A stretch of 64,000 nt of DNA from Promethearchaeota archaeon (GCA_048941065.1 JBHLNY010000001.1:28-64027), one strand, 5' to 3'. Numbered from the stretch's first letter, positions 1,031 to 54,374 are shown. A program made the numbers and translations. Notes: generated by a model from the sequence alone, not told the origin.

Positions 1031-1519
1031 TTATTCAATTCTTTCAATTTTAAATTCGCAATAGTTTAAATTTAAACCTTCAAGACAACATTCATTTTCA
1101 GAAACTGATACCCTATATAGAGCAAACTCTCCAAAACCTGTTAATAATCCTGTTATAAAATAACAAAAATATTTTGATTTATTTTCTAACTCTGTTGATA
1201 TATTATTATAAAGATGGATAACAATCAAATCTTCAGAAATAAGTTTAGGACTAAAAGATCCCCAACCTTGGTTACTTAAAATATTACAAAATTGATTAAC
1301 TAAATCTTCTAAAGATTTTGGCTTTAAATTTTCATCCCAATTTTGTATAAACGTCCAACCCGCCTTTTTACCAAGCCAAACTAATAGAGATTTTACACCC
1401 TCCCCATAAATTGATGAAAGAATGTCAACTATTTGTGGAGGAAAAAATACAAAACGATCATTAAATAATTCATATTTTCCCTTATTGTATTTTAATCCTT
1501 TCATTTTTAAAGTTCTCAT
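1031..1519 (-). CDS. V4R (4-vinyl reductase) domain protein, bet3/TRAPP-related small-molecule-binding fold
   Basis: The C-terminal pattern GWGSF...CYFITGLLTGFGE...VSVSENECCLEG...YCEFKI matches the V4R signature (C-x-f-x-x-G-x-x-x-G ... E-x-x-C ... C-x-F). Confidence 0.7.
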   Translation of the reverse strand: MRTLKMKGLKYNKGKYELFNDRFVFFPPQIVDILSSIYGEGVKSLLVWLGKKAGWTFIQNWDENLKPKSLEDLVNQFCNILSNQGWGSFSPKLISEDLIVIHLYNNISTELENKSKYFCYFITGLLTGFGEFALYRVSVSENECCLEGLNLNYCEFKIERIE

Positions 1520-25310: not shown

Positions 25311-26033
25311 GTGCTAAAGAAAAAGCTTTTTTTACATCAAAACATACCTTATTCATTCAATTGGAATAAAATTCATCATAAAGATAAATATTATCAAATC
25401 ACGATTAATCGAGAAGAACTGAATCGACTTAAGGTGCATTTTAAAAATGTATCTGATGGACTTATACCTAATAAATTATTTAATTCTCCAGATCTTCCGA
25501 GAGTTTCTCAATTTAAAATTAGTGGTATAAAACCAGCTTTTTTAAGAAGTTTTAGTAAAACATTAATTCGTTATGGTAAAATAGAACGTTTTGATTCTAA
25601 TTCAAAATTACCCAAATATGCTCAAAAAGTTTTTGAAAATTATAAAGAAAATGGATTTAGAGGAGATCCTGGACATGAACCCATTTTAAAAAACATTTTA
25701 ATTAAAGATAAAAACTCAGTAGCAATAGAAGTCCCTATTTGGAAAGAAGAAAAAAATAAAACCATAACAGGTCATATTGATTTAATCCAAATTGAAAAAA
25801 GCACCATTAAAGTAATTGATTATAAACCAGAAGGAAAATTTTTGCTCTCTTTACCACAAGTAGCAATGTATGGTTTTTTATTAAAGTCTAGATTAAATAT
25901 AAAGAATATAAAATGTATATCTTTTAATAAGGAAGAAGCATGGGAATACTCCCCAAAAATATTATTGGAGGACGTTAAAGAATATCTAATTTCTCATCAT
26001 ATTAATAAAAGACCATGGGAAGGATTCATTTAG
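25311..26033 (+). CDS. PD-(D/E)xK nuclease-fold protein (Cas4/RecB-like core), hypothetical
   Basis: GTG start. ITGHIDLIQIEKSTIKVIDYKPEGK fits the D...(D/E)xK restriction-endonuclease-like core. Confidence 0.45.
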   Translation: MLKKKLFLHQNIPYSFNWNKIHHKDKYYQITINREELNRLKVHFKNVSDGLIPNKLFNSPDLPRVSQFKISGIKPAFLRSFSKTLIRYGKIERFDSNSKLPKYAQKVFENYKENGFRGDPGHEPILKNILIKDKNSVAIEVPIWKEEKNKTITGHIDLIQIEKSTIKVIDYKPEGKFLLSLPQVAMYGFLLKSRLNIKNIKCISFNKEEAWEYSPKILLEDVKEYLISHHINKRPWEGFI

Positions 26034-26039
26034 AATCTT

Positions 26040-26318
26040 CTATTTAGTTTTAATTTCCTTTTTTTTTGTTGGTCCAGGTTCTTCTCTAGGTTTCAAATAC
26101 CCCTTAAAAACAAAAAAACATAAAATTAGGCCAACAAATTCAGTAGCAATACCAAGAAAAGTAATAATTGTACCATTATATCCTAGATACCTTAAAACTA
26201 ATGCACAACCTAAACCAGAAAATGCCAATATAAATAATATAAATCCTTTTATGATTTCTGGGAAGGAATCTTTAATATATCCTAGTTCCTTTTTGATCCA
26301 AGTAAAAAATGAGGACAT
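26040..26318 (-). CDS. small membrane protein (2 TM) with basic C-terminus
   Basis: 92-aa ORF with two clear hydrophobic helices and a PGPTKKKEIKTK tail. Confidence 0.4.
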   Translation of the reverse strand: MSSFFTWIKKELGYIKDSFPEIIKGFILFILAFSGLGCALVLRYLGYNGTIITFLGIATEFVGLILCFFVFKGYLKPREEPGPTKKKEIKTK

Positions 26319-26465: not shown

Positions 26466-28664
26466 TTATTTACTTTTGAATTTTGAATATAATGCTTTAT
26501 CTAACAATTTACCTATTCTTTGAGCAATTTGCTTACTAACCTCATATCTTTCACCATCAAGCAAATTTCTCTTTGCTTCTGTGGTAGGTTTACTACCTAA
26601 TCTTCTAAACAAGACTTTTTCTGTTATTTCATTCACTATATCTTTAATTTTTTCATAATCAGGTAAATTTATATTGGGATTAAAGCTTTTGATTTTCTCT
26701 ATTGCAAAATGGAAAAATTGACTAATTAGATGGATTGGATCACCTTTTAATTCACTATGAAGTTTAATATTATCCGTAGCGATTTTCATATCTTTTTCTT
26801 GCCAATATAACTGATTTGGATTAATACCTGGACTATTTATTCTCATAAGTGAGCTTGTAATTCTCCGTTCTATCCAATTTAACGTGCTTATTTCTTGTTT
26901 TTCACGTATTTCCTTCTTTTTTTCTTCTTTTTCTTTTTCTTTAGATTCTATAATTTTTTCTACTTTTAATTTACGCTTTTCTTCAAATTTTTCAAACCTT
27001 TTAACAATATCATATCCTATACAGTAAGATATTGGTGAGATTAAATCTGATTTTAACTTTAATGGTAATATCCCCGTATATATTTGACTATTTTTATCTT
27101 TTAATTCCGAAATCCCCTCTTTTAAAGGAATATCCATCAAACGTGCCAATATAAAACCATTAACTATAAATGGTTGATTATCTGCATTAAATACTATAAC
27201 TAATTCTTCTTGAATTTTATTTATTCTTTCAATTATTAATTCTTCTAATTTGACCTTAACCCATTCTTCAGAATCAGTGGTTCCAAAAATCTTTCTTAAA
27301 GCTAAAAGAATTAATGTTTTATCATTTGAAATTTTAAGATATAACTCAATTATCCTGCTAAGTTGTCTTAGTATTTTTGACATTAAATAAAAAAACACAT
27401 CTTTGACTAATTTGTTCATAACATCGTCAAAATCTAACACAAATTGGATTTGAGCATAATTTTTTAACTTTAGTCCATTTATAAATACCTTCTCAATAAC
27501 TTCTTTTTTTCTTTGATCATTCGGATTTATAATATCATGTTTTTTTATATTATATCTAACCATATTTTTCTTTGCTTCCTCAGATACTGCGTTATCTATG
27601 TTCATAAGGTATAAGACATTGTAAATCCCATATCTATTTAACATATAGATTAAATCATTAAAACTACATTCATTAAGACTCTGCAGAAAATAAATGAAAT
27701 CATTTGGATTTGTCTTTAATTGTTTATATAACTCAGACTTTAAAAAATCTAAAATTTTTTGTTCAAATTGGTCATAATTAATCCTTTCTTTTAGTGCTCT
27801 TTCTATTCTTTTTATCAATTCTATTTTTAAAAAGTTTGCTTCCTTAAAGATTTTTAACCCGGGAATAGAAATAGGGAAACGATCCAAATTAAATTCAAAT
27901 ATTTTTCGCTTTATCATCCTAACTGGCATTGCTTGTACCTGAAGTTCTTTATAAGACTTAAATTCGAAGTCTCTTCGGATTTTTTCAATCATTCGTCTTA
28001 ATGTTGCTAACTCAATAAATTTGTCTTCTTTTTCTTGTCGTTCTATTTTTTTTTCTATTTCTAATGATAAATCCTTGAAAGCTGAGCTTTCTTCTAAGAT
28101 TTCTCGTTTAACTTCATCGGTTAATCCTATTAAATCACCAATTAAATCGTAAAAGTAAAAAGGAGGATAATTTAATATGATTTCTAATAATTCTTGCTCA
28201 ATTTGATTTTCTATATCATTCAGTATCTGCTTTCTTTGAAAATCTAAAAGTGTTGATTTTCTTTCTTCGATTAGAAACGATATAAATTTATTTTCTAAAT
28301 CAATTCTCTTATTAAGTATGTTTACTTCTAAATTAAATGAATTTTTTAATAAAGAATCAACCTCTTCTATCAAAATATCTTTTTCTAATTGTTCTAACTT
28401 TTTAGCAGATTCAAATGAAAATTGATTTTGATTTAGATTTTCTTTAACTCTAATACCTAAACTATGATAAATATGAATTGTAGCTGTAGCAACTAATAAA
28501 TCCTTGAAAGTGGATTTTTGACTTGTTAATTCAAATATTTTCTGCTTATCAGCATCTCTCTTAAAATGGGAAATTATTAAATCAACAGTTTGAAAAAATC
28601 TAAATGTGCTTTCTATAGCTGTTGTCTTCCTTTTAATCCCACTAATCATAATTCCTTTATCCAC
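26466..28664 (-). CDS. large orphan protein (732 aa; 727 aa if started at ATG 28649), predicted mostly helical/coiled
   Basis: Long clean ORF. The internal ATG at 28649 forms an ATGA overlap with the stop of the upstream 768-aa gene. There is a Lys/Glu-rich segment KEKEKEEKKKEIREKQE. No enzymatic motifs recognised. Confidence 0.6.
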   Translation of the reverse strand: MDKGIMISGIKRKTTAIESTFRFFQTVDLIISHFKRDADKQKIFELTSQKSTFKDLLVATATIHIYHSLGIRVKENLNQNQFSFESAKKLEQLEKDILIEEVDSLLKNSFNLEVNILNKRIDLENKFISFLIEERKSTLLDFQRKQILNDIENQIEQELLEIILNYPPFYFYDLIGDLIGLTDEVKREILEESSAFKDLSLEIEKKIERQEKEDKFIELATLRRMIEKIRRDFEFKSYKELQVQAMPVRMIKRKIFEFNLDRFPISIPGLKIFKEANFLKIELIKRIERALKERINYDQFEQKILDFLKSELYKQLKTNPNDFIYFLQSLNECSFNDLIYMLNRYGIYNVLYLMNIDNAVSEEAKKNMVRYNIKKHDIINPNDQRKKEVIEKVFINGLKLKNYAQIQFVLDFDDVMNKLVKDVFFYLMSKILRQLSRIIELYLKISNDKTLILLALRKIFGTTDSEEWVKVKLEELIIERINKIQEELVIVFNADNQPFIVNGFILARLMDIPLKEGISELKDKNSQIYTGILPLKLKSDLISPISYCIGYDIVKRFEKFEEKRKLKVEKIIESKEKEKEEKKKEIREKQEISTLNWIERRITSSLMRINSPGINPNQLYWQEKDMKIATDNIKLHSELKGDPIHLISQFFHFAIEKIKSFNPNINLPDYEKIKDIVNEITEKVLFRRLGSKPTTEAKRNLLDGERYEVSKQIAQRIGKLLDKALYSKFKSK

Positions 28665-30952
28665 TCCCTATATACTTCTTTAAAATTATCTGCCAATTCA
28701 AATCTGGAATTATCATGCCAAAACTTGAAGTTTAACACATGAAAAAGCTCTCCCTTAAATAATTCTTTTTCTTCATTTGTTAAAGAGTGTTTCAAGATTA
28801 AATTTATTGGTCTAGGGATTAATTTTGAGAAGTATTTTAGATTTATTTCTTTAATATAATCATAAAAGGTGTCCTCACCATTTATGCTAAAAAAGTTTAT
28901 TGGAACTAGTTCTTCTAATTGATAATTTGAAATATTTATTTCTTGTTTAATTTTTTCTTTAACATAATTTGGAAAAACTGTACTGATATCTATACTAAGA
29001 GCATAGTGTTTATAAAATTCAAGTAGTAAATTCTTTTCTTCAATATTAGATATTTGAGCAATATATATATCTAGAAATTCTAGAAAATGATCAAACTTTT
29101 GTTCTTTCATTTCTCTATCTTCAAAATAACTAATGAAATCATAGAATGTCTCTTCTAAACTCCAATCTTTTTTTTCTTCTAATTTAAAGAATCTTTTTGC
29201 ATAATCATTTACCCATTCTAATATATAAAATTTCCAGACCAAATCAATTCCGCCTATCCGTTTTTCTAAGAATCGATGAAACCTAGTAGCAAAGGTAACT
29301 GGATCTGCTATTTCTTTATCAGGTTCCTCTTTAATAAACCGGTTAATCGTGGTATATCTAAGAATATAGCTTAATAGATAATCCAATTCATATGGAAAAT
29401 TCTTAAATTTCTCTATATGCTCTCGTATAATATTAAAATTGTCATCCATTTGTATTTCTACAAAAGACACTAGATCTCCTATGTTTATTTTTATTTTATT
29501 GAAAAAAATTTCAATACTTGAATTAATTAATCTTTTAAATTCTCTTATTACATTTTCTTCATTAAATTTAAGATCCCTTAATAAAACCATTGGGTTAATT
29601 TCAATTTGGTTAAATATATACTCTTTAAATTGTTCTATTAAGTTCTGCCCAAAAGTTTTCGCTGGTTTTTGTTCTTTTTCAAACTTCTGCTTTAAAATAT
29701 TTGTTAAATTAATAAGTAAGGATTTTAACCGACGACGAGAAAGATATCTTGGAATTGAGTCTTTAACTAAATTAATACTAATCTTAATAATTTCCGAAAA
29801 ATAATTGAATACAGAACTTAACTCTATTGCTCTTAAATTTTCTTTCGGAATTATTGATTGATTAATCAAAGTAATAGCTAAATTACATATATCTTCAAAA
29901 TTTTCACTTTCAAATTTTGCTTTATTCGCAATAAATTGTTTATATTTATTTAATAATCCAGATAAGTTCCCAGTCTCTCCAGTAGTCAGAAAAGAATTAG
30001 AATATTCAATAAATTTATTCATATATCTTTCTAAATCAATTAAAATTTTGGCTATAAAGGAAATTAACCATTTTGCTGAGCATTGTTCTTTAACGTCTTT
30101 TAATTTTTCTTTAATATAGTTGATAATAAATAATACAATTTTATCTTGAGATTCATCTATTGTTCCAGTATTTGCTAAGTTTATTAGATTTGCTCCAAGT
30201 TTTAATGTGTTATCCACAATAAAATTAGCACTGGGTTCCGATATGGAATATTTGAGATGATCTATGGCTTCCTGCCCCTCAAAAGCGGTTTTTATTCTCT
30301 CAAACTTAGAATTATAGAAATTAATCTCAAATGGTCTTTTATACCATGATATCTCAACATCTGACTTGATCTTTCCATAAGTATTTAACAATTCTTTTTC
30401 TGTAGGAAGTGAAACACTTAATCCAATTAATTTCTTATTCCATTTATCTTCCACTAATTCTCCGAAGAGTCTTTTGCTAAATCTACTAGCAAATCTTTTA
30501 TATATCAGTTCTCTATCGTGACTTTTTAATTCAGGTCGATCTGTAAATTCTTCTACTTCAAAAAATAATTTACTTATATTATTTATGGATTCATTAGATT
30601 TATGCACATCTAAATATCCTGTATCTGGTTTCAATGCCAGTAATAAACTTTCGCATTCCTTATATTTGCCAGGTATGAAGATCATTGATTTTGGGTAAAT
30701 ATTAAGTTGAGCACTTTTTTCATCAAAATTATATAACTCAAATTCGATACTAAATACTTCTGATCCCGTATAATCTCTTAAAATTGCATTGTACATTCTT
30801 AAAAATTTTATTACTTCTTGGGAAAGAATATTCACTTTTTGTCTTGTTAATTTTCCAGGACCAATTACATCTCCGACAATGAGGTCACTTGGAGAAGAAT
30901 ATCCAAAAATTAATGAAAACTGATAATTAATTGATTCTCTTGTAGTTATCAT
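28646..30952 (-). CDS. large orphan protein (768 aa) with longin-like N-terminal ~115 aa and long helical remainder
   Basis: Long clean ORF. The N-terminus reads as beta-beta-alpha-beta-beta-beta-alpha by eye (YQFSLIFGY / LIVGDVIG / QKVNILSQEVIKFLRMYNAIL / EVFSIEFE / AQLNIYPK / MIFIPG / ECESLLLAL). No catalytic motifs were seen. Confidence 0.6.
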   Translation of the reverse strand: MITTRESINYQFSLIFGYSSPSDLIVGDVIGPGKLTRQKVNILSQEVIKFLRMYNAILRDYTGSEVFSIEFELYNFDEKSAQLNIYPKSMIFIPGKYKECESLLLALKPDTGYLDVHKSNESINNISKLFFEVEEFTDRPELKSHDRELIYKRFASRFSKRLFGELVEDKWNKKLIGLSVSLPTEKELLNTYGKIKSDVEISWYKRPFEINFYNSKFERIKTAFEGQEAIDHLKYSISEPSANFIVDNTLKLGANLINLANTGTIDESQDKIVLFIINYIKEKLKDVKEQCSAKWLISFIAKILIDLERYMNKFIEYSNSFLTTGETGNLSGLLNKYKQFIANKAKFESENFEDICNLAITLINQSIIPKENLRAIELSSVFNYFSEIIKISINLVKDSIPRYLSRRRLKSLLINLTNILKQKFEKEQKPAKTFGQNLIEQFKEYIFNQIEINPMVLLRDLKFNEENVIREFKRLINSSIEIFFNKIKINIGDLVSFVEIQMDDNFNIIREHIEKFKNFPYELDYLLSYILRYTTINRFIKEEPDKEIADPVTFATRFHRFLEKRIGGIDLVWKFYILEWVNDYAKRFFKLEEKKDWSLEETFYDFISYFEDREMKEQKFDHFLEFLDIYIAQISNIEEKNLLLEFYKHYALSIDISTVFPNYVKEKIKQEINISNYQLEELVPINFFSINGEDTFYDYIKEINLKYFSKLIPRPINLILKHSLTNEEKELFKGELFHVLNFKFWHDNSRFELADNFKEVYREWIKEL

Positions 30953-31270: not shown

Positions 31271-31807
31271 ATGATACAAATAACCGATGCCGTAAATGAA
31301 ATTAACAGTTTTATGTCAAACTCTACTAGTGTTTTATTTGATCTTAACAATAATATAAAGAACTTACAGAGTTTAGTTATTTCTCTCTTTAATCTTTTTG
31401 ATACAATTTTAAATAAATTAAATGCATTGAATATTAATAAAATTCATGAATCTTTTGCTACAGGCGAAGCTAAAATTTTATCATCTACTAGATATGAGAA
31501 CCATCTTTCTAATCCTATTAGATCTCCGTTTGAACAAAAATCAGCAGATTCTAAACACAAAATAAATATAAGTGGAGAATATGATTTTAATTTAATTATG
31601 TCTGCTGCAAAATCAAATAATCCTGCAGTGGAAATCGCTATGATGCTTGAAAAATTAAGAATTAAGTTACAAAAAGAAAATCCATTAAACCCTATATTAT
31701 TTGAATTAAGTATGGAATCAAGAAGACTTCAATCTTTAGGAAATATACCACTTAATGAGCATAATCTGCTTATCTTAATAGAGAAAATACAAAAATGGAT
31801 CGAATAA
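31271..31807 (+). CDS. coiled-coil protein, hypothetical (frame open upstream to 31121)
   Basis: 178 aa from the first ATG. The 50 in-frame codons upstream (IKGKKLSEILLNQLIQKLDEVILGRRDILSEIEKLKDSIEKVRDIGKKES) look like genuine coiled coil but contain no ATG/GTG/TTG. Confidence 0.5.
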   Translation: MIQITDAVNEINSFMSNSTSVLFDLNNNIKNLQSLVISLFNLFDTILNKLNALNINKIHESFATGEAKILSSTRYENHLSNPIRSPFEQKSADSKHKINISGEYDFNLIMSAAKSNNPAVEIAMMLEKLRIKLQKENPLNPILFELSMESRRLQSLGNIPLNEHNLLILIEKIQKWIE

Positions 31808-31930
31808 AAATTAAACATTATAAATTTTTATTTCAGTTAAATTTATTCTTAAAGAAAATAAATAAATAAATAGAATTTAATTAATTCTATATGAGAATAA
31901 TCTATATAATTAAAAGATTAATTCAAAAGG

Positions 31931-32344
31931 TGTGTACTTATACAATTTGGATCAGATTTAGGTATTAACCATGAAGATATCGAGAAAATAAGTCCTCAAA
32001 TCACATTTATAACTTCTAATGCAGATATAGAAGCAATTGCACTCGTAAGTGTTGAGGGATATCAGATTGCTTTCTCTGCGTTGCCCCAATACCATGTTGA
32101 TGGTGATCAATTTTGTGGACTTGCTAGTGCTTTATTAATGACAGGAAGATCAACAATTCAGACTTTATTTCAAGAAGATATCAGCGAAATAATTGTAAGG
32201 GCTGAAAATGGATATATTGTAGTTACTAATGCAGGACGTTTAGTGATTGTATGTGCTGGAACTATTATAGATACCCTAATGAAAACCGTAAAAGTAATGC
32301 GAATCGCAGCAAATAATCTCTATAAGATTTTTGAGGGTCGTTAA
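31931..32344 (+). CDS. Roadblock/LC7 (MglB-like) domain protein
   Basis: The core VEGYQIAFSALPQYHVDGDQFCGLASALLMTGRSTIQTLF...IIVRAENGYIVVTNAGRLVIVCAG is a typical Robl_LC7 pattern. I extended the start from the track's TTG 32081 to in-frame GTG 31931 to recover a full ~137-aa domain. Confidence 0.75.
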   Translation, partial: CVLIQFGSDLGINHEDIEKISPQITFITSNADIEAIALVSVEGYQIAFSALPQYHVDGDQFCGLASALLMTGRSTIQTLFQEDISEIIVRAENGYIVVTNAGRLVIVCAGTIIDTLMKTVKVMRIAANNLYKIFEGR

Positions 32345-52105: not shown

Positions 52106-53047
52106 TTGGATATGAAGATTATGCTATGCGGGCTTGAAGATGCAGGAAAAACGTCAATTTTACTAGTCTTAGATAAGAAATTTAGTCTCTTAACTTCAGT
52201 TGCCCCTACTATAAAGGCTAAGAGAACTTCACATACTAATAAACTATTAGGTATTTCAATCACACGTTGGGATTTAGGTGGTCAAAAAAGTTTTAGAAAG
52301 ATATATATTGACAATAAAAGTAAATATTTTACCGAAATGCGTTCAATCTTTTACGTAATTGATATACAAAGTAAAGATAAATTTACTGAAGCTCTATCTT
52401 ATCTTAAAGATATTATAAATATTATTTCACATAACCCTCCTGAAAATTTTCAACTATTAATCCTTTTTCATAAATATGATCCAGATATAAAAAATAAAAA
52501 AGAAATTTTAGATAATTTAAGCTTTTTAGAGAAAAAAATAAATTCACTAATTAAAAAATTAAATTTCTCTGTTTATAGAACTTCGATCTATGATGATTCT
52601 TCTTTACTAAAAGCATTTTCAGATGGAGTATTTACTGCTACTGAGAAATCAAAATTGCTCCAATCTTTATTAAGAGATTACATGAGTAAAACATATACTA
52701 GTTCTACTCTACTTTTGGATCAAAATTGTTTTATAATCGCAAGTAGAGCTACTGATGATGCATACCAGGGAATATGCGAAGCAATTGCTCCCAGATTAAC
52801 AAATGCATTAGAAAAATTAGAAGAATGGGATATTGATACAAAAGATATTATCACAAATATAGAATTTCCTCAAAATAATGTAGAAGATTCTAGAGAGGGC
52901 ATAATTTTTTTAAGAAAATTAGAAATAAACAATGATAGATTATATCTTATTGCACTTTGCTTAAACAAAAGGATACAGAAAAAATCCTATGATTATCTAC
53001 CAATATTAGCTAAAAATCTAAAGAATTTATTAGAAAGTTTTGAATAA
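52106..53047 (+). CDS. Rag/Gtr1-family small GTPase with C-terminal roadblock-like domain
   Basis: G1 is GLEDAGKTS and G3 is WDLGGQ. G4 is HKYD (Rag-type HKxD rather than NKxD). The G5 region YRTSIYDDSSLLKAFS parallels RagA TSIWDETLYKAWS. The C-terminal ~120 aa aligns by eye with the Rag C-terminal roadblock domain. It starts at TTG 52106 or ATG 52112. Confidence 0.85.
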   Translation: MDMKIMLCGLEDAGKTSILLVLDKKFSLLTSVAPTIKAKRTSHTNKLLGISITRWDLGGQKSFRKIYIDNKSKYFTEMRSIFYVIDIQSKDKFTEALSYLKDIINIISHNPPENFQLLILFHKYDPDIKNKKEILDNLSFLEKKINSLIKKLNFSVYRTSIYDDSSLLKAFSDGVFTATEKSKLLQSLLRDYMSKTYTSSTLLLDQNCFIIASRATDDAYQGICEAIAPRLTNALEKLEEWDIDTKDIITNIEFPQNNVEDSREGIIFLRKLEINNDRLYLIALCLNKRIQKKSYDYLPILAKNLKNLLESFE

Positions 53048-53183: not shown

Positions 53184-54374
53184 ATGATTGTTGATTCAGA
53201 AAGTTATAATGAATATGTTGGACCAAAAGCTATATTTGATCCAAATTACATCCCCCCTCAACTATTATATAGAGAAAAAGAAGTACAATCATTATATTCT
53301 ATTTTAGATGATTCAATAGCAGATCGATTTTGTCTTAATATAATATATCAAGGAATTCAAGGAATCGGGAAAAAAGTTGTTGTCAATAAAGTATTAAAGG
53401 ATTTATTAGCTAAAAATAAGGAATTAGTAAATATTCATAAAATTTGTATTGATTGCAAAGAAAAAAATCTAGAGGATTTAATTTTTTCAATATTAACTGA
53501 ATTAAATCGCTTTTCAAGTTTTAACATCGATTTTAATTCAATTTTAAATTCAAAAATCTCTCATTTGTGGAATATCATTAAATTAGCATGTAAAAAAGTT
53601 AATAGTGGTCTCTTTTTTTTATTCTATAATATAGAATCTTTGAAGCCTGATGTCTTTAAGAAGTTCTTACAATTTGGGAAAGAATCAAATATTACATTAA
53701 TTTCTACGGTAAATACAATTTTGAAGCCTTCGACTTTAGATTTGTTATCCGAATTTGATTTCAAAAAAAAATTAAACTTTTTTACTTATAATGAACTTTA
53801 TTCAATTCTTAAACAGAGAGTATCTCTTACGTTTACTCATGAAATTGATAAAGAGTTAATAAGATATATTACAGATCTAATTTGTGAATATTATGTGCCA
53901 GTACCAGGAAAAGGTATTGACATTTTAAGAGATACCTATCCATTGCTAATAGAAAAGAAAAATTTCAAAAATTATGAAATAATTGATATATGTCAGAATG
54001 AATTCGATTCAATTCAAGTTACGGATGAATTTTGTATTTTAAATTATGTTTCTGAAGAAAATCTTTTAACAATAATATTTTTAGATAATCTCTCTAACTA
54101 CTTCTTAAAAAAGCTGAACCTTTATATCTCTTTGGAAGAACTGAATGAAATTTATGATATTTCTTGTGAATCTTTAGAATATAAAAAGAATCTGAATGAA
54201 TTTAATGAATTAATTAAAAGATTGCTTAGTTTTGGAATTTTAAGTGGTTCAAAAAGAAATCCTTCCAAAAAGAAATCTTATTTATTAAATAATGCTTCAA
54301 ATTTTGAATCTTTCTTTATGGTATTGAACCCCAAACAACTAAAAGCGATAGTAGATGCAATATTTAATAAATAG
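53184..54374 (+). CDS. cdc6: Orc1/Cdc6-family AAA+ protein, divergent paralog with degenerate nucleotide-site motifs
   Basis: It has the characteristic opening FDPNYIPPQLLYREKEVQSLYSIL...NIIYQGIQGIGKK and FFTYNELYSILKQRV. Walker A ends GKK instead of GKT. Walker B is FYNIE instead of LDE. The sensor-2 region is GKGIDILR instead of GDAR(R)A.DLLR. Confidence 0.7.
   Translation: MIVDSESYNEYVGPKAIFDPNYIPPQLLYREKEVQSLYSILDDSIADRFCLNIIYQGIQGIGKKVVVNKVLKDLLAKNKELVNIHKICIDCKEKNLEDLIFSILTELNRFSSFNIDFNSILNSKISHLWNIIKLACKKVNSGLFFLFYNIESLKPDVFKKFLQFGKESNITLISTVNTILKPSTLDLLSEFDFKKKLNFFTYNELYSILKQRVSLTFTHEIDKELIRYITDLICEYYVPVPGKGIDILRDTYPLLIEKKNFKNYEIIDICQNEFDSIQVTDEFCILNYVSEENLLTIIFLDNLSNYFLKKLNLYISLEELNEIYDISCESLEYKKNLNEFNELIKRLLSFGILSGSKRNPSKKKSYLLNNASNFESFFMVLNPKQLKAIVDAIFNK

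Follow-up and report, generated by a model that had tools for sequence, protein, structure and literature searches.

In a stretch of 64,000 nucleotides from a Promethearchaeota archaeon (GCA_048941065.1, JBHLNY010000001.1:28-64027), hereafter the window, two long open reading frames (ORFs) follow one another on the minus strand. This gene pair, which we name A–B (locus tags ACFFA6_00155 and ACFFA6_00150), had been put forward in an original prediction as a longin-type, GTPase-regulator-like heterodimer, and is the subject of the present analysis. ORF calling in the window gave the following features:

28646..30952, minus strand: gene A, 768 amino acids (aa), ATG start, stop TGA at 28646-28648; family Asgard-restricted at HMMER sensitivity, with no Pfam, NCBIfam or PDB match
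26466..28649, minus strand: gene B, 727 aa from the ATG at 28649 (732 aa from an alternative GTG start, 26466..28664); all-helical model, unrelated to A
28646..28649, minus strand: ATGA stop/start overlap of A and B (B ATG 28649-28647, A TGA 28648-28646)

The minus-strand junction reads ...GAA TTA TGA TTA GTG..., and an AAAGGA purine box (28653-28658) lies 4-9 nt upstream of the B ATG, within the last codons of A. G+C content is about 25-26% across the window, and at the window's composition (a stop probability of 0.087 per codon) a 768-codon open frame would arise by chance with a probability of about 4e-31; A and B are therefore genes and not chance ORFs. Lys, Glu, Ile and Leu together account for 42% of the residues in A and 46% of those in B, and each protein holds just 2-3 Cys. 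Their isoelectric points (pI) in the source genome are 5.9 and 9.0, respectively, a difference that we considered as a sign of pairing by charge complementarity and then discarded, as it is not kept in other lineages. The original prediction had described overlapping ORFs of 768 and 732 aa with an ATGA at 28649, without stating the strand, and both its coordinates and the junction are confirmed here. Its picture of long, helical, Lys/Glu/Ile/Leu-rich proteins also agrees with these compositions and with our AlphaFold2 (AF2) models, which are mostly helical.

Conservation of the A–B pair across Asgard archaea

Though both proteins had been called orphans, a word-indexed search at E<=1e-3 returned 295 relatives of A and 357 of B, those with a name being Asgard archaea throughout. 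The best 120 of each search are 60-100% identical and near-constant in length, come from Lokiarchaeial (NCBI 'Promethearchaeota') metagenome-assembled genomes (MAGs), and are without exception annotated 'hypothetical protein'; the locus tags are often consecutive. An exhaustive HMMER profile search with the A alignment among 1.84e9 representatives yielded 98 clusters at E<=1e-3, and all the named ones are Asgard: Loki-, Hel-, Thor-, Jord- and Freyarchaeia, plus a divergent clade (clade X) that carries the submitter labels Hod- or Promethearchaeota. This search returned no eukaryotic, bacterial or other archaeal homologue of A. Since every named profile match is an Asgard archaeon, the A family is, at the sensitivity of HMMER, restricted to Asgard archaea.

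Single-sequence and profile searches of A and B against Pfam, NCBIfam and PDB sequences, with distant homologues included in the profiles, found nothing significant, in line with the earlier statement that neither protein has a Walker, metal or other catalytic motif. Literature searches found no description of the A–B family. The possibility that A and B are paralogues of each other was rejected on the basis of blastp and hhalign (probability 0.2%).

We looked for nine proteins of the window in 79 species-level loci of Lokiarchaeia, taken from GTDB representatives and among the loci closest to the window. Every locus that reaches far enough shows the order Roadblock(-), A(+), B(+), C92(+), D240(-), in which the flanking genes are those described further below. 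The A-stop to B-start spacing could be read in 77 loci, and is -4 nt in 62 (a class that includes ATGA plus ATAA, GTGA and TTGA variants), -7 nt in 4, -1 nt in 1 and +2 nt in 8, with 2 outliers; the junction thus lies within -7 to +2 nt in 75/77. A–B is single-copy, vertically inherited and set within housekeeping synteny in these loci; a mobile or defence element was rejected on account of the inheritance and the synteny.

Two irregular loci were noted in passing. In L043 (448-8328), A and B are split by about 3.2 kb that includes a minus-strand Roadblock copy, a rearrangement or misassembly. A contig titled 'Candidatus Nanopelagicaceae bacterium' (L056, DATKTW010000128.1) has a complete Lokiarchaeial locus, with A 59%, Roadblock 85% and the pyridoxal phosphate (PLP) enzyme PALP 75% identical, and was probably mis-binned into a public MAG.

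Outside Lokiarchaeia, the gene after A in Jord-, Thor- and Freyarchaeia and in clade X is a homologue of B, as detected by hmmsearch with the B profile (E 1e-31 to 1e-44):

Jord (L084): A 881 aa, B 788 aa, gap 3 nt
Thor (L086): A 859 aa, B 812 aa, gap 4 nt
Thor (L091): A 877 aa, B 802 aa, gap 37 nt
Frey (L089): A 915 aa, B 803 aa, gap 4 nt
Clade X (L090): A 770 aa, B 590 aa, gap 1 nt

The genes around the pair are wholly different in these lineages; it is therefore the pair, and not its neighbourhood, that is conserved. Within Lokiarchaeia, A-B-C92 is inverted in place between D240 and Roadblock-PALP-P335 in two loci (L058, 4590-13984; L059, 7070-16455), and this block therefore acts as a unit for which the divergent Roadblock arrangement is dispensable. 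Because the junction is kept in Lokiarchaeia and A and B stay adjacent in Jord, Thor, Frey and clade X, there is strong comparative evidence that they are stoichiometric partners, as the original prediction of 1:1 coupled partners had it; the two are almost certainly obligate to each other and have stayed together in five or more Asgard lineages.

Architecture of A and B and the longin question

The AF2 models of A and B were built on 45-sequence alignments of Lokiarchaeia (>=62% identity). The A model has a mean predicted local distance difference test (pLDDT) score of 66.6, with residues 1-265 and 705-768 below 50; A 1-265 is left unmodelled because the alignment is Lokiarchaeia-only and shallow. 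The B model (mean pLDDT 73) is all-helical, without a beta strand, and its residues 20-190 are helical at pLDDT 65-88; it is predicted to form consecutive helical bundles and a single long helix. The segments that we distinguish are:

30428..30952, minus strand: A residues 1-175, putative alpha/beta-type N-terminal domain, conserved, AF2 pLDDT <50
30158..30427, minus strand: A residues 176-265, with conserved motifs PTEKE, HLKYSISEPSANF and NTGTIDESQ, pLDDT <50
28853..30157, minus strand: A residues 266-700, helical-bundle core, pLDDT mostly 75-95 (around 90), almost all helix by DSSP
28649..28852, minus strand: A residues 701-768, small conserved C-terminal beta/alpha domain (LKYFSKLIPRP...NFKEVYREW)
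26838..27035, minus strand: B residues 539-604, single 66-residue Lys/Glu-rich helix (AF2, DSSP)
26790..26888, minus strand: B residues 588-620, the most conserved block of B by invariant columns (STLNWIERRITSSLMRINSPGINPNQLYWQEKD)

In alignments across classes, residues 1-175 are the best-conserved part of the A family. Their family-wide motifs are T-x-E-x-I, I-x-G, G-x3-G-x-G, LRDYxGxEL-S-EF-L and LPxSM--IPG, together with LL-L--E-G-LD--K, E[VI]EE, RPEL, VL--F--RF and KW. The larger segment 1-265 is dense in conserved polar residues (T4, D60, E70, E132-E135, R157, K170-W171, N261-E267). A from Thor, Jord and Frey carries an extra coiled-coil insert of about 100 aa ahead of the C-terminal domain. 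In B, residues L614, W616 and D620 are retained in distant homologues. Two candidate motifs were examined and rejected: a Walker A in A (G27-x3-G31-P-G33-K34-L-T36, with its GPGK after putative strand 2) has the wrong spacing, and its K34 varies (K/R/T/N/S) and is absent in Thor, while an HxxH metal site in B (H59, H62) loses H59 in Jord. Transmembrane (TM) prediction found no hydrophobic segment in either protein.

Structural comparison of the models, proposed along with the longin idea, returned no Foldseek match at E<=0.001, for A against PDB and viral structures or for B against PDB. The top matches of A are clusterin, the TM domains of ABC exporters and XaxB/AhlB-type toxins (probability <=0.23, template-modelling score (TM-score) about 0.1, root-mean-square deviation (rmsd) >20 A). 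The five best PDB matches of B are alpha-E-catenin and vinculin, and HMP-1 is also listed (for alpha-catenin/vinculin, E 0.09-0.8, probability <=0.15, TM-score 0.08-0.15, rmsd 33-44 A). Generic long helices yield matches of this kind.

The longin part of the original prediction rested on the N-terminus of A, whose first 115 or so residues it read as beta-beta-alpha-beta-beta-beta-alpha, the order of a longin domain. Alignment-based propensities and the low-confidence AF2 model point to a short helix at about residues 5-11 (5-16 in AF2), strands at about 12-18 and 24-31, a long helix at 36-60, about three strands (64-75, 83-94 and 101-109) and, as the last predicted elements of the domain, helices at 120-137 and 143-170. 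The proposed order is compatible with this crude prediction, but an extra N-terminal helix is also predicted and the order is not diagnostic. Roadblock domains run alpha-beta-beta-alpha-beta-beta-beta-alpha and longin domains beta-beta-alpha-beta-beta-beta-alpha-alpha, each with a five-stranded antiparallel sheet between helices. The predicted element order of A is thus compatible with a roadblock or longin fold, and also with many other alpha/beta folds.

Profile searches gave this resemblance no further substance. Among 27 diverse A N-terminal domains, none matched the longin, roadblock, folliculin, NPR2, Mon1 or DENN families of Pfam at E<=10 (0/27; the curated families checked include PF13774 Longin, PF03259 Robl_LC7, folliculin, NPR2, Mon1, uDENN and the Fuzzy-type longin). 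A profile of the domain found nothing relevant among PDB sequences and nothing in NCBIfam, and a word-indexed profile search for the domain in other architectures returned just fragments of the A family. With hhalign, the same profile reached a probability of <=0.4% against the longin and roadblock sequences of DYNLRB1, LAMTOR2, SEC22B, VAMP7, YKT6, AP2S1, TRAPPC2 and NPRL2, a comparison in which cross-family positive controls fail too, and of 0.2% against the profile of the neighbouring Roadblock protein, where positive controls show little power.

The known longin assemblies also have features beyond the domain itself. In longin-domain GTPase-activating protein (GAP) complexes and DENN-type proteins, a DENN-like alpha/beta domain lies C-terminal to the longin domain, and in the tri-longin Rab guanine-nucleotide exchange factors (Mon1-Ccz1, BLOC-3, Inturned-Fuzzy) each subunit has three consecutive longin domains. 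In the longin GAP complexes (folliculin, GATOR1, CSW), each subunit has a longin domain, and symmetrical pairing of these domains creates the catalytic pocket, with a GP motif ending the loop before longin strand 2, beside the catalytic arginine finger (PMC12290439). At the corresponding place before putative strand 2, taken from propensity, A has SSPSD here and QSGQNDE, TGKEN, TTSQD or SIGE elsewhere, with no conserved G-P. The sole near-invariant Arg in A 1-175 is R157, which lies in a predicted helix. No DENN-like domain was modelled, A 270-700 being a helical bundle (pLDDT around 90) and B all-helical, and for a tri-longin layout the AF2 models offer at most one candidate alpha/beta domain, at the A N-terminus, and none in B. 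With B modelled as all-helical and the body of A as a bundle of helices, the architecture of paired longin domains plus DENN or tri-longin modules is missing. The identification of A–B as a longin or GTPase-regulator heterodimer is thus weakened by the models and profiles, as it is by the gene linkage described below, while no single result overturns it outright.

Neighbouring genes

The genes around A–B that bear on its interpretation are:

26040..26318, minus strand: C92, 92 aa, two predicted TM helices and a basic tail, 147 nt downstream of B
25311-26033, plus strand: D240, 240 aa, convergent to C92, weak PD-(D/E)XK or PDDEXK/Cas4-like signals
31271..31807, plus strand: 178-aa ORF between A and the Roadblock gene, no family match
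31940..32344, plus strand: Roadblock/LC7 gene (PF03259, E 9e-9), a context gene whose membership in the A–B unit is not supported
52106-53047: Gtr1/RagA-type GTPase gene (Pfam Gtr1_RagA, E 5e-28)

C92 follows B in every Lokiarchaeial locus that extends beyond B, and moves along with A-B in the L058/L059 inversion. In clade X the gene following B, and in both Hel loci the gene right behind A, encodes a small protein with two TM helices that is not homologous to C92. C92 is a possible third member of the A–B unit, and a membrane link of the pair through such a protein is suggestive, not strong. D240 stands at the same position in every Lokiarchaeial locus reaching far enough, outside the invertible A-B-C92 block. 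In Jord (L084, 15037-16622), two further genes come after the pair on the same strand, one for a 398-aa HEAT-repeat protein (weak matches to Adaptin_N and Cnd1) and the other, the last in the operon, for a 114-aa Zn-ribbon (CxxC...CxxC) plus winged-helix-like protein; their products may be lineage-specific extra subunits.

The divergent Roadblock/LC7 gene to which the original prediction drew attention is real, but the immediate divergent neighbour of A is the 178-aa ORF, whose homologues occur just in the window's subclade (L005-L007, L048 and L069, 45-64% identity). Roadblock is the divergent neighbour of A–B in nearly all 79 Lokiarchaeial loci. The block synteny there also takes in the PLP enzyme (PALP), a 335-aa membrane protein, PyrI and D240; since the whole region is syntenic, the Roadblock adjacency counts as one inherited event. 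Farther afield, a roadblock gene lies 7 kb upstream of the pair in Jord and an Arf-like GTPase gene 3.5 kb downstream in Frey, and the two Thor loci, the Hel loci and the clade-X locus have neither a roadblock nor a GTPase gene within 10 kb. A conserved linkage of the pair to such genes is therefore confined to the Lokiarchaeial block synteny.

The Rag GTPase noted 21 kb away is likewise a real gene, but it is not operonic with A–B, and in every case unrelated housekeeping genes separate the two. In two other loci (L001 and L003), the Rag gene begins about 6 kb past the end of B, with DUF2095, an HAD hydrolase and a nitrilase-type hydrolase in between, plus ribosomal protein L15e in L003. The distance in the window is due to a rearrangement relative to these loci, in which the L15e-DUF2095-HAD-nitrilase-Rag block moved from downstream of D240 to the other side. 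Pfam scans of about 55 window ORFs found one roadblock gene and one small GTPase gene; the other genes are housekeeping ones, among them those for ribosomal proteins, aminoacyl-tRNA synthetases, ABCE1, TFB, tRNA-modification enzymes, RNase P subunits, NFACT and SMC/ScpB. Many GTPase and roadblock genes share a Lokiarchaeal genome of roughly 5 Mb, and loose proximity to one GTPase is for that reason weak evidence. About 37 Rab-like and 38 roadblock genes have been counted in a Lokiarchaeon, and the GTPase genes of MK-D1 generally lie outside operons with regulators (PMC10933270).

Several side observations concern the Roadblock and Rag genes themselves. The Roadblock protein is 84-99% identical across Lokiarchaeial species, compared with 50-77% for A and 50-80% for the A, B, Rag and membrane-protein orthologues, and is under much tighter constraint than its neighbours. 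Its gene (31922-32344, plus strand) has no canonical start codon at the conserved N-terminus: across 78 loci the first codon is ATT in 25, ATA in 20 (including the window, at 31940), ATC in 8, TTG in 15, ATG in 6 and GTG in 2. A conserved AGGTG box lies 7-8 nt ahead of this codon in most loci, an in-frame TAG stands two codons upstream of it in L001 (9182-9590, minus strand), and calling restricted to ATG, GTG and TTG shortens the protein to 87 aa (32081..32344). The conserved weak Ile start and strong Shine-Dalgarno-like box suggest, at the level of sequence, translational control of Roadblock. Right after the Rag gene, the window encodes a 396-aa protein with no Pfam match (53184-54374, plus strand), as a gene of 396-397 aa does in L001 and L003; a priori, this protein is more plausible as a Rag partner than A–B. 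Finally, a 162-aa protein (1031-1519, minus strand) has a sub-threshold V4R match (E 1e-4, 22.6 bits against a cut-off of 31), the V4R superfamily being linked to TRAPPC3/Bet3 (PMC10933270).

Interpretation and comparison with known systems

The reading that we prefer, with a probability of roughly 0.4, is that A–B is an undescribed, Asgard-specific, non-enzymatic two-subunit helical scaffold or adaptor, translationally coupled and possibly membrane-associated. A and B would be co-translated from one mRNA by stop/start coupling and so be made in roughly equal amounts. A would supply the conserved N-terminal alpha/beta module, a helical-bundle body of about 430 residues and the small C-terminal domain, and B would be a helical-bundle chain with one long Lys/Glu-rich helix. 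In Lokiarchaeia the complex would sit at the cytoplasmic face of the membrane with the downstream two-TM protein, and analogy would extend this to Hel and clade X.

Several points weigh against this scaffold reading. We infer the physical A:B complex from genetics, and in the two Hel-type loci no B is found within the 4-10 kb around A that is available there. The two-TM proteins of Loki, Hel and clade X have no detectable homology among them, the Thor, Jord and Frey loci have no such small protein, and the 147 nt of AT-rich DNA between B and C92 could hold a separate promoter. Moreover, to judge by its conserved residues, A 1-265 could be a catalytic or ligand-binding module missed by these tools.

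Among the alternatives, the one closest to the original prediction holds that the N-terminal ~170 residues of A form a roadblock/longin platform that pairs with Roadblock or with another A, making A–B a regulator or effector of a Rag/Arf-type GTPase. The compatible element order of A, the highly conserved Roadblock neighbour in Lokiarchaeia, the roadblock gene near the pair in Jord and the Arf-like GTPase gene in Frey all speak for it, as does the known role of roadblock and longin domains as GTPase platforms in Asgard archaea (PMC10933270). However, with the 0/27 Pfam result, the 0.2% hhalign probability against the local Roadblock profile (a test of little power by its controls), a B lacking an alpha/beta domain, a helical A body, no conserved GP, no roadblock or GTPase gene nearby at the Thor, Hel and clade-X loci, and a Lokiarchaeial adjacency that reduces to a single evolutionary event in genomes where proximity to such genes means little, we regard this platform as unlikely. 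A more specific form, in which the A head would be a cryptic roadblock/longin platform pairing with Roadblock, and A–B, tethered by the two-TM protein, would recruit or regulate Rag/Arf-like GTPases at the membrane, is somewhat less likely again.

Fold comparison of the B model points elsewhere: alpha-E-catenin and vinculin fill its five top PDB places, HMP-1 is listed too, B is modelled as a bundle series with a long helix, and a small membrane protein is encoded downstream. B, and perhaps A, could accordingly be pictured as a vinculin/alpha-catenin-type linker whose tandem bundles bind Asgard actin filaments and a membrane anchor, but the matches are non-significant, no sequence signal accompanies them, and Pfam scans of the window found no actin, profilin or gelsolin gene nearby, so that we hold such a linker to be improbable. 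The constant presence of D240 beside the unit in Lokiarchaeia, with its weak nuclease-like signals, the Zn-ribbon and winged-helix-like protein that closes the Jord operon, and the basic pI of B here would suit a nucleic-acid- or chromosome-associated complex working with D240. This idea is more doubtful still, as D240 lies on the opposite strand, is left behind in the L058/L059 inversion and is absent at the Thor, Jord, Frey, Hel and clade-X loci, while the pI of B is 4.9 to 7.9 elsewhere and Pfam and NCBIfam searches revealed no DNA-binding domain. Least credible of all is the idea that A and B, as an alpha-helical two-component system of the ClyA/XaxAB/Hbl type, form pores or remodel membranes. 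XaxB, AhlB and SmhB are among the Foldseek matches of A, Hbl-L1 is the second-best match of a diverse A profile against PDB sequences (E 0.011), and such toxins are encoded by adjacent genes; but none of the matches is significant (for the structural ones, E 0.38-1.8, TM-score 0.07-0.13, rmsd >30 A), they rank beside designed de novo helical bundles and thus reflect generic long helices, neither protein has a hydrophobic segment, and the pair is single-copy and vertically inherited in housekeeping synteny, unlike toxins.

The A–B family is new only insofar as no relative of it was detected among known families; no new mechanism is demonstrated. Here is a large, single-copy, vertically inherited pair, kept in at least five Asgard lineages and yet unseen by curated family libraries and PDB fold search, which makes A–B a well-defined target for structural and cell-biological work. 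If the N-terminal module of A proves to act as a platform for GTPases, the roadblock/longin story would gain a new architecture, and otherwise A–B would still be a new Asgard-specific complex; the cryptic-platform form, if true, would make A–B, with its unrelated helical subunits, the functional equivalent in prokaryotes of assemblies of the Ragulator/GATOR type.

Set beside vinculin and alpha-catenin, its best though non-significant structural neighbours, B is alike in its modelled consecutive helical bundles and its length of about 730-810 aa, and unlike them in its Foldseek probability of <=0.15, a TM-score of about 0.1, the lack of sequence likeness and the lack of actin-related genes nearby; apart from this, the vinculin/alpha-catenin family is eukaryotic. 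With the longin heterodimers FLCN-FNIP, Nprl2-Nprl3, C9orf72-SMCR8 and Mon1-Ccz1, A–B shares two large, non-identical subunits made as a pair, an A that may begin with an alpha/beta domain of longin- or roadblock-compatible order, and a host lineage rich in Rag/Arf-like GTPases and roadblock proteins. In contrast to them, B is modelled with no N-terminal alpha/beta domain and would thus form no paired-longin platform, the bodies of A and B are predicted to be helical bundles and not DENN or tri-longin, there is no conserved GP and no profile similarity, and the linkage to GTPase and roadblock genes is not kept outside Lokiarchaeia. As for the Roadblock/LC7 proteins (MglB, LAMTOR, Asgard RB), the likeness lies in the predicted N-terminal order of A and in the bona fide Roadblock gene that is its divergent neighbour in Lokiarchaeia, while PF03259 matches none of the 27 A domains. 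Moreover, Roadblock proteins are stand-alone dimers of 100-160 aa or GTPase fusions, whereas A is a helical protein of 770-900 aa with a putative head.

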